From contig JBFJCP010000023.1 of the NCBI GenBank assembly GCA_041615815.1, forward strand, positions 16,597-80,596: a stretch of DNA of 64,000 bases, written 5' to 3'. The notes under the pieces were generated by a model that was not told the DNA's origin, made no database searches, and worked only from the letters and a program-made list of their open reading frames with translations. The position numbers were made by a program, and so were the translations under genes. This DNA is from Gemmatimonadales bacterium (GTDB lineage: Bacteria; Gemmatimonadota; Gemmatimonadetes; Gemmatimonadales; GWC2-71-9). The first letter of the stretch is position 1. Each line of letters begins with the position of its first letter. Positions 37,727 through 52,463 of this stretch are shown piece after piece.

Positions 37727-38920
37727 ATGACCGACACATACTTTCGGAGAGGTTTCGGCCTCAAAGGTGAGGTGGCCGAGGATCTCACGGCGGACTATCA
37801 CAGTCAACTGGTGGATCGGATCCGCGCTGAGGGCGGTATGTTATCCGTCGAAGGCTTCGCCATCCTTGTTGCGAAGGAGTTTGGTTTCTGCTACGGCGTC
37901 GACCGTGCGGTAGAGTATGCGTACCAAACGCGGGCCAAGTTCCCTGACCGTCAGATCTACCTCGTGGGCGAGATCATCCATAATCCCCATGTGAACACCA
38001 AGATGGAGGTCATGGGGATCACCATTCTCCGACCTGAAAGCGACGGCGCGTTCGATTATTCTCACATCACGGAGGACGATGTCGTGGTTCTGCCGGCGTT
38101 CGGGGTTCGGCGCGAGGACTTCGAGCAGTTACGGAAGGTGGGCTGTCTCGTGGTAGACACGACCTGCGGGTCGGTGCTCAACGTGTGGAAGCGGGTGGAC
38201 CGATACGCAAGAGAGGGTTTCACGGCCGTGGTGCACGGAAAGCACTATCACGAGGAGACCAAGGCGACGGTGAGCCAGGTATCGAAGTACCCTGGTGGCA
38301 AGTATATGATCGTGCGGGACATGGCGGAGGCCGAGTTATTGTGTGGGTTTCTCGAAAACCGGCTCGAATCTTCGACTATGCGAGAAACGTTTGGTTACAA
38401 GGCATCTCCCGGTTTCGATTTCTCGGCCGATCTCGAACGCATCGGTGTCGCAAATCAGACCACCATGCTCGCCGGCGAGTCGCTCGCCATCGCGCGACGC
38501 ATTGGAGAGTCTCTGGCCCGACGCTACGGTGCCGAGGAGTTGGACAAGCGCTTCCGTACGTTCGACACGATCTGCTCGGCGACGCAGGAACGGCAGGATG
38601 CCGTGTTGGAGCTGATCGAACAGCCGCTCGACGTCATGGTCGTGATCGGCGGGTACAACTCGAGCAACACCAATCATCTGGCCGCGATCTGTTCCGACCG
38701 CTTGACGACGTATCACATTTCAGACTCGTCTTGCATTGACCCAGAACGCGGAACCATCAGCTTCAAGCCGGTGGGGAGCGAAGAGCCAACGGAACGTGCG
38801 CACTGGTTGGCGGAGACATCCCGGCTGGGCATCACAGCGGGTGCGTCCACTCCCAACAACAAAATCGGCGAAGCCATCGAGCGTATCTTGAAAACTCGTG
38901 GCCTGCCCTCACCGATATAG
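37727..38920 (+). CDS. ispH: 4-hydroxy-3-methylbut-2-enyl diphosphate reductase
   Basis: FGFCYGVDRA, EIIHNP, DTTC, HEET, NQTT, DTICSATQERQ, GGYNSSNT and TAGASTP. Confidence 0.95.
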   Translation: MTDTYFRRGFGLKGEVAEDLTADYHSQLVDRIRAEGGMLSVEGFAILVAKEFGFCYGVDRAVEYAYQTRAKFPDRQIYLVGEIIHNPHVNTKMEVMGITILRPESDGAFDYSHITEDDVVVLPAFGVRREDFEQLRKVGCLVVDTTCGSVLNVWKRVDRYAREGFTAVVHGKHYHEETKATVSQVSKYPGGKYMIVRDMAEAELLCGFLENRLESSTMRETFGYKASPGFDFSADLERIGVANQTTMLAGESLAIARRIGESLARRYGAEELDKRFRTFDTICSATQERQDAVLELIEQPLDVMVVIGGYNSSNTNHLAAICSDRLTTYHISDSSCIDPERGTISFKPVGSEEPTERAHWLAETSRLGITAGASTPNNKIGEAIERILKTRGLPSPI

Positions 38921-44803: not shown

Positions 44804-47800
44804 TTAACCCCAATCTTTGGATCCCGGAGCGTGACGCCGCAGTCGCTTGAGAAAAGAATATGGAGAGTGGGCAGGAGCAGCAGACGCGTCTGAAAGGCCC
44901 GGTGTCCGTCCGTCCGGCATTCCGCTGGTCCGTCGCACTCGCAACGCTCGCACTTCTTCCGCGATGATGTTGACCGTTCCGTCATCACGGGCGAGGGTTC
45001 CGGTGATCCACAAAAAAGGCTCTCCCCGAATTGCGATCCGATCACGCTCGAACACCTTTGGTCGGACGATAGCGTTGATCATCCCGGTCTCGTCTTCTAT
45101 GAGAATGAACGTGAAACCACGAGCGGTTTGTGGCCGCTGTCGAGCGACGACCAGCCCGGCCACTTCGACGGGACCCTCATGCTCGATCTCTTCGAGCCGG
45201 TCACTGCGTATCACGTTTGCTGGCAGTGCATCCCGCAACAGTGAGAGGGGGTGTCCACTTGCTGCGAACCCGAGGACTTCGTATTCCGCCAAAAGCTGTT
45301 CGTCCTGGGTCAATGTGCCGAACGACAGGCCCTCGTGGGGATGGTTGAGCGGAAGCTCGAGCTGCCGTCGGACCCGTCGGCGGTCCGGTGGTTCCGTTTT
45401 GGGGGGGAGCCAGAGACCCGCCTGCCAGAGTAGCTCACGGCGAGTGAGGCCAAAGCCGTCGCATCCCCCCACCCAAACCAGGTTGTCGATGCAGTCGCGG
45501 GAGAGTCCTGCGGGAGCGCGGCGTACGAAATCACCCAGGCTACGAAACGGCCCACGGTGTTCCCGCTCCAGTACGACCTGCTCGGCCACGTCCAGTCCCC
45601 AATTCCGAATGAAACCAAGCCCCACACGAACGCATTGCTCTTCGATCGTGCAGTGGACATCACTTGCGTTGATGTCCGGCAGCTTGACCTGAACGTCGTG
45701 GCGCGCAGCGTCACGCCCTAAAGCGTCCAAGGAGTAAAAACCCATGGGCTGATTGTTGAAGAGCGCAGTGTAGTACTCGACGGTATGGTAGTGTCTGAGC
45801 CAAGCCGATTGGTAAGCGAGGAGACCGAACGCCGCCGCGTGAGATTTGGGGAACCCGAACTCCGAAAAGGCCACCACTTGTTCGAAGACACGGCGGGCCA
45901 CGGCCTCAGACACGCCCCGGTTTGCCGCGCCGTCGCGAAAATCCTCCCAGAAATTCTCCATGAGTTCTCGCGATCGCCGCCGGCTCATGGCGCGCCGCAA
46001 CGCCTCGGCCTGACCAGCGGTGAACCCGGCCAGTGCTTGGCACACTTGGAGCACTTGATCCTGATAAACGATGACCCCAAGTGTCTCGCTTAACGCTTCC
46101 CGCAGTAACGGATGAGCCACTGGTGGCTCGTAGAGATCGCCACGTTCCCGAGCGCGGCGCTGCTCCTCTCGACGTCGAACGTAGGGATTGACCGCACCGC
46201 CGACGATGGGACCGGGTCTGACAATCGCGACTTCGATCGCAAGGTCTTCGAGGTTTCGTGGCCGTGTGCGCCGAATCATCTGGATCTGGGCGCGGCTCTC
46301 GATCTGGAACAATCCTACGGTGTCGCCGGAACAGATCTGATCGTAGACCGCCTCGTCGGTAAATTCGATCCGACTGAGGTTAGGTGTGGTCCCTTCCTTC
46401 CGTGCTATCAGTTCCGTGCACTCCTCTACTAATGAAAGCATGCCAAGGGCAAGGAAATCGATCTTGATGAATCGTGCATCGTCACACGAATCCTTGTCCC
46501 ACTGACAAAGGACGCGGTCCGGCATAGCCGAGCGCTCGAGTGGGACGATCTCCACAAGGGGGCGGCTGGAAATGATCATGCCTCCCACATGCTGCGAGAT
46601 GTGCCGTGGAAGTCCTGCGATTTCCTCAGCGAGCTCGCAAAGCTCGCGCCATAGGGGAGCATCGACCCGATCGGCCATTCCCGGAAGCTGACGTAGCTCC
46701 TCTCGCAATCCGTTGGCCGAATAGTGGCTGGCCAGACGAGCCACCTGCTCGATCTCGCCTGGCGGCAAGTCGAGGGCCTTGCCAAGCTCGCGCACCGCGG
46801 AACGAAGCCGATACGTGGGAAATGTACAGACGAGGCCCACATGCTCCTCTCCATACCGCTGATACACCCGCCGCATGAGCTCCTCACGGATCTCACGGGA
46901 GAAGTCGAGATCGATGTCGGGAACGGAAGCCAGGGTTTCGTTGAGAAACCGACCGAGAAAGAGACGATTTTGGATGGGATCGATATGCGAAAGACCGAGG
47001 AGATAACAGACAATGGACGAGACCGACGATCCACGCCCCCGTCCGGGAAGCATATTGCCGAGTGCTCGGCGGGTTCCGCGACGCACATCCGCAGCAACCG
47101 CACGAGCGAGATCGAAGAGATCGTGATAGACGAGGAAGAAGCCGCAGAGTCCATGATGGGCGATCAGACGTAGTTCCTCCTCGAGCCGATCCACGGCATC
47201 GCGATGGTGTTGGGAATCTACCGGATAGTTTTCCTCCAACTTCGCACGACAGAGCTCACCCAACGCTTGCGGTGGAGTGCGGCCGTTGGCGCCACGAAAA
47301 TCGGGAAAGGTGTATCCCAAATCCTTCGTGAGATCGAAGGCCGTACACCGTTCGGCGATCAGTACCGTGTTGGCGATCGCATCCGGACGGTCCCGAAAAG
47401 CGATCTGCATGTCAGCGGGGCGACGCAGGAAAAATTCGCTGTTGGGCTTTCGAACGTCGTGCGATGCGTCCAGAGTGGTTCGATGTCGAATGGCTACCAA
47501 CGCATCGTATAGTCGGTGACGCTCGCGACGATGATAATGCACGTCACCCGTGGCGACGACCGAGAGTCCCACGGCGTCGGCGATATCACAGAGAGCCCTC
47601 GTACGTGCCCGGTCGCCCTGCACGGCGTTTCGCTGGAGCTCGACGAAGAATCGTTCCATACCAAACACGGCACGACAGCGTTCGGCCAAACGTCGTGCAG
47701 CCGTATACCCTTCCCGATCGAGCACCTGCGGCAGTAATCCATCCCGGCATCCCGATAGAACGAGCAGTCCTTCGTGACGCTCTTCCAATGAAGCGAAATC

Positions 47801-48118
47801 AAGCCGAGGATCGCGGCGATCCTCACGTTGGAGATGCGCTTCAGTGAGAAGACGGCACAGGTTTGCGTACCCGGTGGGTGTCTCGACGAGCAGAGTGACG
47901 TGCGAGCCATCCAACAGCGAGACCTCGGCACCGGTGATGGCTTGGATTCCCAGATGCTTGGCCGCCTGAGCAAACGCCATCGACCCGTATATGCCGTTGT
48001 GGTCGGTCAGGGCCATTGCCGGATACTCGAACTCATGGGCCTGGAGCACCAGTTGTTCGGGGTGCGAAGCACCATCGAGGAACGAGAACGCGGAATGACA
48101 GTGGAGTTCGATGTACAT
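44804..48118 (-). CDS. dnaE2: Error-prone DNA polymerase III alpha homologue
   Basis: PHP motif ELHCHSAFSFLDGAS; GRGSS, PDIDLDF, KIDFLALG, FPKSHA and NNQPMGFY; OB-fold ARQRPQTA; C-terminal SKDWG (DnaE2 SRDF-like); downstream of imuB. Confidence 0.95.
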   Translation of the reverse strand: MYIELHCHSAFSFLDGASHPEQLVLQAHEFEYPAMALTDHNGIYGSMAFAQAAKHLGIQAITGAEVSLLDGSHVTLLVETPTGYANLCRLLTEAHLQREDRRDPRLDFASLEERHEGLLVLSGCRDGLLPQVLDREGYTAARRLAERCRAVFGMERFFVELQRNAVQGDRARTRALCDIADAVGLSVVATGDVHYHRRERHRLYDALVAIRHRTTLDASHDVRKPNSEFFLRRPADMQIAFRDRPDAIANTVLIAERCTAFDLTKDLGYTFPDFRGANGRTPPQALGELCRAKLEENYPVDSQHHRDAVDRLEEELRLIAHHGLCGFFLVYHDLFDLARAVAADVRRGTRRALGNMLPGRGRGSSVSSIVCYLLGLSHIDPIQNRLFLGRFLNETLASVPDIDLDFSREIREELMRRVYQRYGEEHVGLVCTFPTYRLRSAVRELGKALDLPPGEIEQVARLASHYSANGLREELRQLPGMADRVDAPLWRELCELAEEIAGLPRHISQHVGGMIISSRPLVEIVPLERSAMPDRVLCQWDKDSCDDARFIKIDFLALGMLSLVEECTELIARKEGTTPNLSRIEFTDEAVYDQICSGDTVGLFQIESRAQIQMIRRTRPRNLEDLAIEVAIVRPGPIVGGAVNPYVRRREEQRRARERGDLYEPPVAHPLLREALSETLGVIVYQDQVLQVCQALAGFTAGQAEALRRAMSRRRSRELMENFWEDFRDGAANRGVSEAVARRVFEQVVAFSEFGFPKSHAAAFGLLAYQSAWLRHYHTVEYYTALFNNQPMGFYSLDALGRDAARHDVQVKLPDINASDVHCTIEEQCVRVGLGFIRNWGLDVAEQVVLEREHRGPFRSLGDFVRRAPAGLSRDCIDNLVWVGGCDGFGLTRRELLWQAGLWLPPKTEPPDRRRVRRQLELPLNHPHEGLSFGTLTQDEQLLAEYEVLGFAASGHPLSLLRDALPANVIRSDRLEEIEHEGPVEVAGLVVARQRPQTARGFTFILIEDETGMINAIVRPKVFERDRIAIRGEPFLWITGTLARDDGTVNIIAEEVRALRVRRTSGMPDGRTPGLSDASAAPAHSPYSFLKRLRRHAPGSKDWG

Positions 48119-48262: not shown

Positions 48263-48625
48263 TTATGGCTTCTGCATGAACCATTCGTTGGTCATCAGGT
48301 TCTCGAACAACACCATGTGCCCTCCTCCTTCCATTGCCACGTCGACGTAGCGTCGCGAAACGGGCTTTCTCCACCACTCGTCGTCGATACGCCAGATTTC
48401 CAGGATCTCTTCCACCCTTCGCGCGTCATCCATGAGAGTGATGCATTCGCGGGCGCCTTTGGTTCTTCTGTCCCCGCTGCCCGCACTGTCCCTACTGCTC
48501 CCATCAACCTTTTCTCTTACTGCCACAGGCATACCAGCTGCGTCGAGCTCGACCTCGACGCGTACAGGCACGTTCAGGGCTCGAAGTCGATCAGCGCGTA
48601 CCGGCGCTCGGGAAGACGTGACCAT
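48263..48625 (-). CDS. Small DUF6504-like protein of the mutagenesis cassette
   Basis: LNVPVRVEV...VEEILEIWRIDDEWWRKPVSRRYVDV...LFENLMTNEWF resembles the ImuB C-terminal/DUF6504 module. Confidence 0.75.
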   Translation of the reverse strand: MVTSSRAPVRADRLRALNVPVRVEVELDAAGMPVAVREKVDGSSRDSAGSGDRRTKGARECITLMDDARRVEEILEIWRIDDEWWRKPVSRRYVDVAMEGGGHMVLFENLMTNEWFMQKP

Positions 48626-49968
48626 GGATGCACCTCGATGACGTGATAGAGCATGGAGCGTTTGAGGCGGGTCTGGATCTCGCGGGCTGCTGTCCGCAAT
48701 GCGCGCTGCCTGCCGGCACGGGCACTGCTCTCGGCATCTCGAACAAAGAGCTGTAACTCGTCCGTTCCACGAACGAATTCGATGAACTCAATGGCCAGAT
48801 GTTCCACCGCTCCCACCGGAGGAGATTGCTCGAGGCGGGTGTTGAGCGGTTGGGCGATGCGTTCTCGAATGGCCGAAGGGTCTTTGAGAGCCACCTCGAC
48901 CATCCATGAGGCTCCGTTTTCGAGGACTGCGCGAGCGCGGAGTACATGTATACGCCACCCATGGCGTCGGGGATGCTTCAGTGCCCGATCGATCAGCAAC
49001 CCCAGGGCGTGGGCCAGCATTCCCCGATCCGCCACCGGTGTGAGATAATCGAGAGCGGCAATAATAGGCTCGGGACGCGGTCGGCCAACTACCGGATCGT
49101 CAGTGACGCCTGTTGCGAGTTGCCAGGCATATCGCCCCTCACGACCGAACTGGGCGACCAAGGCCTCTTCCGGTAAAGCGGCCACGTCGGCAAGCGTTTT
49201 GATGCCGAGTTGCCAGAGTCGGCGTTGGGTGTCGAGCGTGACGGGTAGGGCGACGATGGACTGCACAGCGAGGAATATCGTGCGGCGCTGATCGGGGATG
49301 ATCACCCACTCACCGGGTTTGGCTTTGGCCGCTGCCACCCAAGCCACGAACTTGCCACGCGCCCAACCCAGCCGCACCCAGTCCACCCAACTCGCCCGTT
49401 CCGAAAGACCACTGCCGCCCTCGCTCTTTTTTCGGATTCGGCGACCCCATCGCTCTCCTGCTCCCCGGTCTCGGCTCCCCGCTCCCGCATACCGCTCGAT
49501 CGCAGCTCGGATGGCGAGCAATTGCTCTTCGGGTCCTCCCACTAGCCGATCCAATCCATCCACGCCCACGAACACCTTCCCCAACTCGACGGGCTCGACG
49601 ATCGGACTGATACTGCTCAGTGCGAGGAGAATGCGAGCGAACTGCTCGTCGTAATACACGGGGTCCGGCTCACACAATGCCAAAGATGGACACAAGCCAA
49701 TCGCCTGGCTCACGGTCATCCCGGTCTTGACTCCAAGACGTCGGGCAAGTGAGGAAACCTGCCAGAGTCGGCGGGTGTCTTCCGGCGCGAGCACCGCCGC
49801 GGGTTTCGCGGCCAACTCGGGCCGCCGCAACTCCTCGGCGCGCAGGGTAAACGTGGGAATCCAAACACACACAGCGGAATCGCTGGCGAGTACGGGTCCT
49901 TCGGCAGCGTGGACCGGTGGACCGGCAGTTGGATGCGCTGGCGGATGGACAGGAGGCATCAAGACCAT
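48574..49968 (-). CDS. imuB: Inactive Y-family polymerase homologue ImuB
   Basis: ARRLGVKTGMTVSQAIGLCP, LWQLGIKTLADVA and QFG. Catalytic Asp motifs are replaced (CVWIPTF; VEPVELGKVF). Clamp-like ELQLF present. Start is ATG 49968 or 49959. Confidence 0.9.
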   Translation of the reverse strand: MVLMPPVHPPAHPTAGPPVHAAEGPVLASDSAVCVWIPTFTLRAEELRRPELAAKPAAVLAPEDTRRLWQVSSLARRLGVKTGMTVSQAIGLCPSLALCEPDPVYYDEQFARILLALSSISPIVEPVELGKVFVGVDGLDRLVGGPEEQLLAIRAAIERYAGAGSRDRGAGERWGRRIRKKSEGGSGLSERASWVDWVRLGWARGKFVAWVAAAKAKPGEWVIIPDQRRTIFLAVQSIVALPVTLDTQRRLWQLGIKTLADVAALPEEALVAQFGREGRYAWQLATGVTDDPVVGRPRPEPIIAALDYLTPVADRGMLAHALGLLIDRALKHPRRHGWRIHVLRARAVLENGASWMVEVALKDPSAIRERIAQPLNTRLEQSPPVGAVEHLAIEFIEFVRGTDELQLFVRDAESSARAGRQRALRTAAREIQTRLKRSMLYHVIEVHPWSRLPERRYALIDFEP

Positions 49969-49970
49969 TG

Positions 49971-49990
49971 AAACCGAAGAAAACCCGATA
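49971..49990 (-). promoter_or_regulatory. Direct-repeat operator copy 2 (TATCGG-GTTTTC-TTCGGTTT)
   Basis: Lies immediately upstream of the imuB ATG and matches the copies at 49998 and 52430. Confidence 0.7.
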
Positions 49991-49997
49991 ACCAAGG

Positions 49998-50032
49998 AAA
50001 CCGAATATATCCCGAAAATCGCAGTGTTGCAA
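49998..50032 (-). promoter_or_regulatory. Sigma70-type imuB promoter (TTGCAA-N17-TATATT) overlapped by operator copy 1 (TTTCGG-GATATA-TTCGGTTT)
   Basis: -35 at 50027-50032, -10 at 50004-50009, operator at 49998-50017. Confidence 0.75.
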
Positions 50033-50192
50033 GGTCTAGATGTGGTTCCTATAAGTCTTTTAATGACATGTGTTTAGTTGCTAGACATGGTGCTGCGCGC
50101 CGCCGTCAGACTGGCGAAGCCATCCACCCATCCGGGACGATGTGAGCGAGTGTGGGCTTCCCCGTGGGTACCCCCGTCCCTAACCTCTTATC

Positions 50193-51086
50193 ATGATCCG
50201 TTTTGGCGTTGCCGGTTGGAGCTACGACGACTGGTACGGTCCTGTCTATCCTATCACGAAACCCAAGGGGTTCGATCCCCTCGCGTACCTTGCCCGTTAC
50301 TTCGATACCATCGAAATCAATTCGACGTTTTATCGTCCACCCACCCCTAGGACTGCCGAAAACTGGGCGCGGCGTATCTCACATAACGCTCGCTTCTCGT
50401 TCACCGCTAAGCTGTGGCAGCGCTTCACCCATCAGCGCGAGGCCGCCTGGACTGGCGACGAGCGTGATCAAGTGGTGGCCGCGATGACACCTCTCGCCCA
50501 AGCGGATCGGCTCGGATGTCTCCTCGCACAGTTTCCCTGGTCGTTCAAACGCTCACCGGAATCGGAGGAATGGCTCGGCGATCTCGTGACCGCCTTCGGA
50601 GAGTTTCCTCTCGCCGTGGAGGTGCGCCACAGCTCGTGGAACGTTCCGGATTTCTATCGATGGCTCAGCGACCGACAGGTTGGGGCGGTGAATATCGATC
50701 AGCCCATCTTCGGGCACTCCATAAAGCCAGGTGCCGCAGTGACGTCGCCTGTGGGGTATATCCGGCTGCACGGTCGAAACTATCAAAACTGGTTCCGTGA
50801 CAACGCCGAATCCCATGAGCGCTACGACTACCTCTACACGGCGGAGGAGCTCAAGGCGTGGCTGGATCTGATTCATCAGGTCGCAGCGCGCGCGCGCGAG
50901 ACATACGTGATTGCAAACAACCACTTTCGAGGACAAGCTCCCGCCAACGCGGCGATGCTGGAAAAGCTGTATGGGCACACCGACGTCGAAGTACCGCCCG
51001 AGCTAGCCCGGAGTTACGGAGAGATCCTCGAGCCGCTGGGGATTCGCGGCGCTGGAGCTCACGGAGAGCTGGAGCTGGGACTTTGA
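50193..51086 (+). CDS. DUF72 domain protein
   Basis: GVAGWSYDDWYG, YARYF-like YLARYFDTIEINSTFY, LAQFP, VEVRHSSW, YIRLHGRN, YDYLY and ANNH. Confidence 0.9.
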   Translation: MIRFGVAGWSYDDWYGPVYPITKPKGFDPLAYLARYFDTIEINSTFYRPPTPRTAENWARRISHNARFSFTAKLWQRFTHQREAAWTGDERDQVVAAMTPLAQADRLGCLLAQFPWSFKRSPESEEWLGDLVTAFGEFPLAVEVRHSSWNVPDFYRWLSDRQVGAVNIDQPIFGHSIKPGAAVTSPVGYIRLHGRNYQNWFRDNAESHERYDYLYTAEELKAWLDLIHQVAARARETYVIANNHFRGQAPANAAMLEKLYGHTDVEVPPELARSYGEILEPLGIRGAGAHGELELGL

Positions 51087-52252
51087 TCTTTGCGCGGGCC
51101 GGGACGATCGAGCGCTTCGCTTCGCTCTTCCGCCATCGGGTTTGTTCGCTCTGCCGACCGTCCCGACCCCCACAAGGTCAGTTGTGTTGGGGCGGCTGCC
51201 ATCACCGCCGGTTGCTCTTGGGCTCCATTCGTATCACGGATTCCAAAGCGCGCGGCGATCCGCCGAAACCGAGCTTCCACCGCATCCTTGTAGGCCTTGG
51301 GGGCGTCGCGCCGTGCGCCGAAGGCAACCCGATATCGACGTGCCAATGCCGGGAATTCACGCTCCAACACTTCGACGAATCGACGGCGGGTATCAGGGTA
51401 CAGTCTGAGGACGCTGGGGTAGACGAAGCGCGCCCCCGCCGATGCTGCAGCGGCCATGAGATTGCTGATCTCATCCGCTGTATCGGTGAGCCCTGGAAGC
51501 ACCGGAGCCACGATGAGCCCCGCGCGAACCCCGGCCTCGGTCAAGTGATGGAGTGCCCGCAGCCGCGCATGCGGCATGGGGGACCGTGCCTCGAAGAGCC
51601 TGATGAGACGGACATCCACGCTGATGAGCGACACGTAAACGCTCACACGATGCCGGTCCGCGAGGGTCCCCAACAGGTCGATGTCTCGGCACACCAATGG
51701 GCTCTTTGTGATAATGCCAATATGAAGTCCGCGCTCCCCACACAAACGCTGTAGAACGGCGCGCGTGATCCCGAATTGTCTCTCCGCGGGTTGATAAGGA
51801 TCCGTCGCCGTGCCAAGTACGATGTTCTGCGCTCCCACCGCTCGCCGTCGCACGGCGGCGAGATCACGGTCGAGGGCGGCGAGCAGCGTACCCCGTTCCT
51901 TGACGAAGATGCGTTGCTCGAAGGGCTCGCCCGACCCTCCTTGCGCGGTGACCGTTTTTGGGGCTCCAGCCCGCGCATATCGTTGGGACAGATACTGATG
52001 GGCGAAGCGCGCGTAGCAATACGAGCAACCGAACTCGCATCCGACGTAGGGATTGATCGACCAAAAGCTCATTCCGGTGGCTTCAGGTGGGTTGATGGCG
52101 GTGTTGCCGCGGTGCTCGACGAACTGTGCGCCACGTCGCCGGACATCGAGTACGACCGGGCCGACAACTCTCTCGCGTGCGCGACGGTGCCGGAACAGCT
52201 CGACCTGACCAGGTGCCTGGTCGAGACATGGAAGCGATAGGCCTACCCGCAT
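51059..52252 (-). CDS. Radical SAM protein (SplB/Rv2578c/PA0069-like, DNA-repair associated)
   Basis: SINPYVGCEFGCSYCYAR (CxxxCxxC), GTATDPYQPAE, IITKS and APVLPGLTD. The start is uncertain; ATG 52252 overlaps the upstream stop. Confidence 0.88.
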   Translation of the reverse strand: MRVGLSLPCLDQAPGQVELFRHRRARERVVGPVVLDVRRRGAQFVEHRGNTAINPPEATGMSFWSINPYVGCEFGCSYCYARFAHQYLSQRYARAGAPKTVTAQGGSGEPFEQRIFVKERGTLLAALDRDLAAVRRRAVGAQNIVLGTATDPYQPAERQFGITRAVLQRLCGERGLHIGIITKSPLVCRDIDLLGTLADRHRVSVYVSLISVDVRLIRLFEARSPMPHARLRALHHLTEAGVRAGLIVAPVLPGLTDTADEISNLMAAAASAGARFVYPSVLRLYPDTRRRFVEVLEREFPALARRYRVAFGARRDAPKAYKDAVEARFRRIAARFGIRDTNGAQEQPAVMAAAPTQLTLWGSGRSAERTNPMAEERSEALDRPGPRKDQSPSSSSP

Positions 52253-52428
52253 GCTCCCCAGCCGCACTGCCGACAGTGGAAACATCCCGAGCTGGCCAGC
52301 ATCGGGCCGCCGCAGTCCGGACAGCTGCTTCCGGTGGGCAAGGGAGGGCCCACTCCGTCGGGGACGCAACGGGGAGGGATCCGTGGCCGGTAAACCGTAG
52401 GGCGTAGTTTCGGGTTTTGTTCAGCCAT
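52243..52428 (-). CDS. Stand-alone Zn-ribbon microprotein (61 aa)
   Basis: MAEQNPKLRP...CPDCGGPMLASSGCFHCRQCGWGACG. The ATG lies 7 nt after a -10 hexamer. Confidence 0.7.
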   Translation of the reverse strand: MAEQNPKLRPTVYRPRIPPRCVPDGVGPPLPTGSSCPDCGGPMLASSGCFHCRQCGWGACG

Positions 52429-52429
52429 A

Positions 52430-52463
52430 AAACCGAAGATATACCGAAATTTCCGTGACGCAA
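52430..52463 (-). promoter_or_regulatory. Promoter TTGCGT-N16-TATCTT overlapped by operator copy 3 (TTTCGG-TATATC-TTCGGTTT)
   Basis: The operator at 52430-52449 sits in the same register over the -10 as at imuB. Confidence 0.72.

Follow-up and report, generated by a model that had tools for sequence, protein, structure and literature searches.

A direct repeat, TTCGG-N6-TTCGG, lies on the promoters of lexA, recA, imuB and a radical SAM gene in the class Gemmatimonadetes and is very probably (about 0.93 by our estimate) the operator through which LexA would control a small regulon. The repeat was first noticed in a 64,000-nucleotide stretch of a Gemmatimonadales genome (contig JBFJCP010000023.1, positions 16,597 to 80,596; hereafter the window), where the initial annotation had taken it for a candidate new, lineage-specific box of LexA or another repressor at two DNA-repair promoters. 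Its assignment as an operator is based on its position and conservation, on the constant spacer of 6 bp and on the way it co-varies with LexA.

The repeat in the window, the genome and relatives

The three direct-repeat copies described on the minus strand of the window (49971-49990, 49998-50017 and 52430-52449) are all present, as are the degenerate inverted copy at 52408-52424 and both promoter hexamer pairs, TTGCAA-17 bp-TATATT and TTGCGT-16 bp-TATCTT. The pattern as initially written, TWTCGG-N6-TTCGGTTT, matches three times in the window versus not once in any of 100 shuffles. Since this pattern was derived from the very same copies, the independent tests are the other promoters, i.e. those of lexA, of recA and of relatives. 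Position counts in the relatives' sites showed that TTCGG-N6-TTCGG is the conserved unit of 16 bp, whereas the trailing TTT of the original motif is not conserved and had to be discarded.

At the imuB promoter, operator 1 (TTCGG-GATATA-TTCGG, 50001-50016, minus strand) overlies the predicted -10 element TATATT (50004-50009), which is preceded by a predicted -35 element TTGCAA (50027-50032) in a register shared with relatives. With 31.1 bits it is the top-scoring site of the genome under a matrix built on relatives only. Operator 2 (ATCGG-GTTTTC-TTCGG, 49974-49989, minus strand, 21.0 bits) sits 27 bp downstream and has one mismatch, ATCGG, in its first half. The second promoter precedes a small zinc-ribbon open reading frame (ORF) and the radical SAM gene. 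Here, operator 1 (TTCGG-TATATC-TTCGG, 52433-52448, minus strand, 27.2 bits) likewise overlies the predicted -10 element (TATCTT, 52436-52441; predicted -35 element TTGCGT, 52458-52463), and an inverted operator 2 with one mismatch (TTCGG-GTTTTG-TTCAG, 52409-52424, plus strand, 18.2 bits) falls within the first few codons of this ORF. Two further look-alikes at 37742-37758 and 51318-51334, the latter within the radical SAM gene, score below 11 bits and are probably due to chance.

The source genome (G000; 4.19 Mb, 95.7% complete) encodes one LexA from a single-copy gene (contig C1, 68494-69102; PF01726; TIGR00498 with 199 bits versus a cut-off of 110.95). When aligned to E. coli LexA, the cleavage site Ala87-Gly88 as well as Ser122 and Lys160 are intact. 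The lexA promoter carries two exact boxes and the recA promoter one; upstream of these two genes, where the initial annotation had suggested to look, the box is thus found in the source genome and, as detailed below, in relatives. The scoring matrix comprised 101 sites from imuB loci and lexA promoters of relatives, its core fixed by selection and recA excluded. It ranks the sites of imuB (two), recA, the radical SAM unit and lexA (two) as the top six of 54 genome matches above 11 bits. The next intergenic match is an exact box of 20.6 bits on the minus strand of contig C35 at 27817, in the layout TTGCGT-N17-TATGTT, ahead of a 15-codon ORF and an ABC-permease-like gene of 829 amino acids. It possibly marks a further regulated promoter.

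Because the relatives are kin and not independent, the following counts show conservation and are not to be read as probabilities. All 55 Glu-type lexA promoters (those of LexAs with Glu at the helix-3 position treated below), which cover all sampled orders of the class Gemmatimonadetes, have an exact box, and 52 of them have two. A de novo dyad count over 26 lexA promoters (the genome's own and 25 of 30 relatives; the other five were added later) recovered both TTCG-N7-TTCG and TCGG-N7-TCGG in every one. At recA, an exact box lies within 300 nt in all 30 best-scoring loci of the own family, the source genome included, versus none of 30 downstream controls. Among 25 more distant Glu-type genomes, three have an exact recA box, 19 a box with one mismatch (first half-site TTCGC or TTCGT) and three none; 22 of 25 with at most one mismatch compares with a background of 120 among 3758 genes of the source genome.

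The imuB genes of 29 relatives in the genome collection, 28 titled Gemmatimonadota or a subgroup thereof and one Nitrospira, include two pairs of near-copies, L017/L021 and L025/L031. The box is exact in 26 of these loci, either directly upstream of imuB or before a unit of zinc-ribbon, radical SAM and imuB genes; one of the remaining loci has a box with one mismatch and two have little upstream DNA. Within 300 nt of imuB, spacer 6 occurs in 10 loci versus at most two for spacers 0-15. The locus titled Nitrospira (L025) is a contig of 1.8 kb in which the sequence upstream of imuB is identical to that of the Gemmatimonadota locus L031, and it is probably mis-binned. Six near-complete relatives were also scanned. 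The 62 loci read comprise many low-scoring or intragenic matches; the high-scoring intergenic ones precede lexA, recA, imuB, imuA, radical SAM, DinB/YfiT-family, GIY-YIG and DUF222/HNH genes.

The register of the box also bears on its function. If the repeat were itself a promoter element, such as a sigma-factor or activator site, one would expect a register fixed for each promoter type, and this is what we see. At lexA, where the first box fills the spacer between the -35 and -10 elements, TTG is present at -6/-5 in 52, TA at +17/+18 in 53 and T at +22 in 54 of the 55 promoters. However, the register differs by promoter type, as the box overlies the -10 element at imuB, recA and the radical SAM unit. 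In addition, second copies follow at variable distance, 21-37 bp downstream of the first box at lexA and 23-27 bp away, in inverted orientation, at the zinc-ribbon gene. Such a varying register with variable second copies fits a repressor and not the polymerase, and we regard a promoter element as highly improbable.

Chance similarity or coding constraint would be in keeping with the lack of genome-wide enrichment of the core, and the inverted copy indeed overlaps the ORF start in most relatives, where it spells the beginning MxEQxPK of the zinc-ribbon protein. For the forward copies, the counts at lexA and recA, set against the controls, refute chance. As to the inverted copy, a box with at most one mismatch occurs at the ORF start in 21 of the 24 relatives having the ORF, and is paired with a forward box 23-27 bp away in 19 of the 24. 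At loci L015, L021 and L023 the first ATG of the ORF comes only after the inverted box, which in L021 is also out of frame with it; this indicates that the constraint acts on the DNA. An origin by chance or coding constraint is therefore hardly credible.

The geometry at lexA would suit autoregulation and, together with the co-variation described below, supports the initial reading of the repeat as a LexA box. In the mechanism that we propose, one LexA dimer would bind two half-sites 11 bp apart and keep RNA polymerase out, at lexA by occupying the spacer between the -35 and -10 elements, at the imuB, recA and radical SAM promoters by covering the -10 element. Where a second copy follows 21-37 bp downstream, whichever its orientation, it may tighten repression. 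Upon DNA damage, RecA filaments would stimulate self-cleavage of LexA and so relieve repression, releasing lexA, recA, imuB-ORF-dnaE2 and the zinc-ribbon-radical SAM unit. RecA-stimulated self-cleavage is described as established for LexA generally in passages of PMC9578287.

The fifth base of the half-site and LexA helix 3

Substitutions of Glu45 in E. coli LexA alter the outermost base pair of its operator. In the LexA of the source genome, which has SLATVHEHL as helix 3, an ungapped alignment pairs this residue with Glu44. Glu45 of E. coli LexA is also counted among the DNA-binding residues in part of PMC13416735. In the other classes of the Gemmatimonadota the corresponding residue is Lys, and the lexA promoters of these Lys-type genomes show an exact TTCGC-N6-TTCGC in nine of 13 cases and TTCGG in none of 13.

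A metagenome scan with G or C allowed as fifth base extended this pairing; of at least 120 matching loci, 80 were read. Among these 80, 48 have C in both half-sites (C/C), 25 have G in both (G/G) and seven are mixed. All 15 readable LexAs behind C/C boxes have TVHKH, and all ten behind G/G boxes have T[VI]HEH, one further G/G locus being unreadable. Source names, taken from the LexA proteins or their cluster members, were obtained for seven of ten looked up. Five C/C LexAs belong to Acidobacteriota (Terriglobales, Acidiferrales) and one carries a Deltaproteobacteria or Verrucomicrobiae label, while one G/G LexA (L225) is named Ca. Falkowbacteria and combines TIHEH with an exact TTCGG-N6-TTCGG at the same promoter position. 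The TTCGG box is found at lexA in low-GC contigs similar to Ca. Falkowbacteria, too. Patescibacteria also include a Lys-type LexA (L332), for which the sequence comprises the protein but no upstream DNA.

In a viral collection, selection by protein gave five full-length LexAs, four of them with upstream DNA, and all four fit the pairing, two being near-identical. A pattern scan of that collection with the fifth base left free returned mostly chance matches (six G/G and six C/C among 80). A plasmid search for acidobacterial lexA gave none among 14 matches. Five frames of the viral collection (L347, L350, L359, L337 and L372) are short and have a LexA DNA-binding domain without the peptidase domain; they share the helix of host LexAs, ATVHEHL or TVHKHV. 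From their sequences, these frames could encode phage mimics of LexA that occupy the host box and escape cleavage.

The fifth base goes along with a single residue of LexA and thus probably reveals in part how the protein recognizes its DNA. It is reasonable to propose, with moderate confidence, that Gemmatimonadota, Acidobacteriota and Patescibacteria share one widespread family of direct-repeat operators, which exists in two states, TTCGG-N6-TTCGG and TTCGC-N6-TTCGC. In this proposal the helix-3 residue at the position of E. coli Glu45, here Glu44, would read and set the fifth base (Glu for G, Lys for C), a single substitution would have rewritten the SOS box of a whole class, and recA hybrids such as TTCGC-N6-TTCGG would be half-converted relics. 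The hybrid sites, presumably weaker, might permit basal expression of recA.

A repressor other than the primary LexA could also bind the box, be it a LexA paralog or an unrelated damage regulator that controls lexA as well. Family f2 and certain other orders do have another gene of the LexA family, with the helix KSTKTVS (L102-L118, L080, L081), and L102 passes TIGR00498. Yet the source genome and all 55 genomes of family f1 have one LexA at E<=1e-15 while their promoters carry the box. In the 19 paralog loci read, which represent 18 distinct genes, the 150 nt upstream contain no exact box (L119 yielded no match), and across phyla the fifth base changes with helix 3 of the LexA encoded next to it. 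The absence of a box in these 150 nt, along with the paralog not being found in the source genome, speaks against the paralog as binder. Overall, a repressor other than the primary LexA is improbable.

Several observations weigh against LexA as reader of the box or against the rule for its fifth base. The core is not enriched genome-wide, with 15 matches at spacer 6 versus 6-30 at spacers 0-20. In the source genome, no site above 11 bits was found at uvrA (two genes), uvrB, uvrC, recN, ruvB, mfd or uvrD/pcrA, so that the box is missing at both copies of uvrA, a gene at which the initial annotation had suggested to search, and a regulon with nucleotide-excision and recombination genes finds no support at those located. 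This check relied on short signatures, which did not locate ssb, dinB, ku, recX, radA and recG and gave false matches for ruvA and recO. Four of the 13 Lys-type lexA promoters lack an exact box; one of them has a box with one mismatch, two lie at the end of the available stretch and one has none within 300 nt. On a LexA tree of 60 rows the Glu/Lys label shows just two changes, and a tree on which Glu arose only once is not rejected (approximately unbiased test, p-AU 0.344). The co-variation hence rests on one or two events, and independent origins of the Glu state are unsupported by the tree.

The remaining points concern recA. In the Lys-type classes (L532-L546), neither a TTCGC nor a TTCGG box was found at recA within about 1.2 kb searched in 15 of 15 genomes. 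In these classes recA may stand outside the LexA regulon or deep in an operon. In the distant Glu-type orders, the first half-site at recA is TTCGC in 13 of 19 cases and the box is exact in only two of 19; in family f2 the first half-site is mostly TTCGT. Given C or T in this position, the rule that Glu pairs with G is strict only for the downstream half-site.

Genes at the two window promoters

The first operator-bearing promoter of the window precedes an imuB-like gene of the Y family (48574-49968, minus strand; PF00817). Its start is uncertain (ATG at 49968, ATG at 49959 or GTG at 49872) and its product scores below the DNA polymerase IV cut-offs. It is followed on the same strand by a Trp-rich ORF of 120 amino acids (48263-48625), which overlaps the imuB end and has no match in Pfam or NCBIfam, and by dnaE2 for an error-prone DNA polymerase (44804-48118; NF004225 with 955.6 bits versus a cut-off of 939). 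A search of the source genome for imuA with one query from a relative matched recA only, and the cassette appears to consist of imuB, the ORF and dnaE2. A DUF72 gene (50193-51086, plus strand) is divergent from imuB and lies between the two minus-strand units.

The second promoter is followed by the zinc-ribbon ORF (61 amino acids, 52243-52428, minus strand), the first gene of the radical SAM transcript, which was recognized by its C-terminal motif CxxC...CxxCxxCGWG and does not figure in the initial annotation. It has no Pfam match; a weak resemblance to class II ribonucleotide reductase, confined to the C-terminal tip of that enzyme, has an E of 1.2e-5 and stays far below the cut-off. Searching with the C-terminal motif, we found this ORF in 24 of the 29 imuB loci, with 50-78 amino acids and the ending CxxCxxCGWGxCG; in these 24 loci it heads the radical SAM and often also the imuB transcript. 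As its ATG in the window lies only 7 nt past the -10 element, the transcript is likely leaderless. The radical SAM gene itself (51059-52072, minus strand, start codon predicted) had been called SplB-like; family comparison places its product in the Rv2578c/PA0069 type, below every cut-off and with a weak match to spore photoproduct lyase.

Relation to known LexA boxes

The Gemmatimonadetes box is a variant of the GTTC-N7-GTTC type, with which it shares the direct repeat, the 11-bp period and the TTC core. According to a 2006 report by Mazon, the GTTC-N7-GTTC box is said to hold for Acidobacterium capsulatum, too. LexAs of Acidobacteriota likewise belong to the SLATVHxH type, and at lexA they have TTCGC-N6-TTCGC placed in the register seen here. 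For Alphaproteobacteria, GTTC-N7-GTTC is given as the LexA box in the relevant passages of PMC8565304, PMC3323433 and PMC9578287. The Gemmatimonadetes box differs in that the base before TTC is not a conserved G (C 48, T 25, G 16 and A 12 in the 101 training sites; G in 16 of the first and 20 of the second half-sites) and in that its information extends to the GG after TTC.

The claim of a lineage-specific and new box stands only in part, since the same box occurs at lexA of Ca. Falkowbacteria and a one-base variant at lexA of Acidobacteriota. A Patescibacteria motif of Sanchez-Osuna, Barbe and Erill (2017) is cited among direct-repeat LexA motifs in a passage of PMC7739468. The likeness lies in the exact TTCGG-N6-TTCGG at the Ca. 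Falkowbacteria lexA; Patescibacteria are, however, another phylum, and such LexAs are 37-43% identical to that of the source genome. In view of that citation and of the box at the Falkowbacteria lexA, the odds are about even that the TTCGG-N6-TTCGG consensus is already in print for Patescibacteria. PMC7739468 describes, in the part on Balneolaeota, a LexA direct repeat TTACACATATTTTWTACATA with a small regulon of lexA, recA, translesion polymerases and a radical SAM gene. Direct repeat and regulon are similar to ours, but the half-site sequence is unrelated. In the Firmicutes/Actinobacteria box CGAAC-N4-GTTCG, as listed in Table 1 of PMC9578287, the right half-site GTTCG overlaps TTCG(G), but this box is a palindrome and not a direct repeat. 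For Gemmatimonadota, no description of a LexA box was found by full-text searches of the literature, supplements, which could list motifs, being outside the search.

For the Gemmatimonadetes, a class that is abundant in soil and sediment and mostly uncultured, these results provide a likely SOS box and a core damage regulon of lexA, recA, imuB-dnaE2 and radical SAM genes, to which some relatives add imuA and DinB/YfiT-family genes. Taken alone, this fills an expected gap. The more useful result is the pairing of Glu/Lys with G/C, which offers a direct and cheap test of a shift in LexA specificity. In the sections of PMC8565304 that treat this subject, 17 distinct LexA motifs are counted and motif change is explained by duplication of lexA; as opposed to that model, a point change in LexA may suffice for a motif shift. 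If the pairing holds true, a single mutation would serve to test how LexA motifs change when no gene is duplicated and in what way a LexA dimer recognizes half-sites in head-to-tail order.

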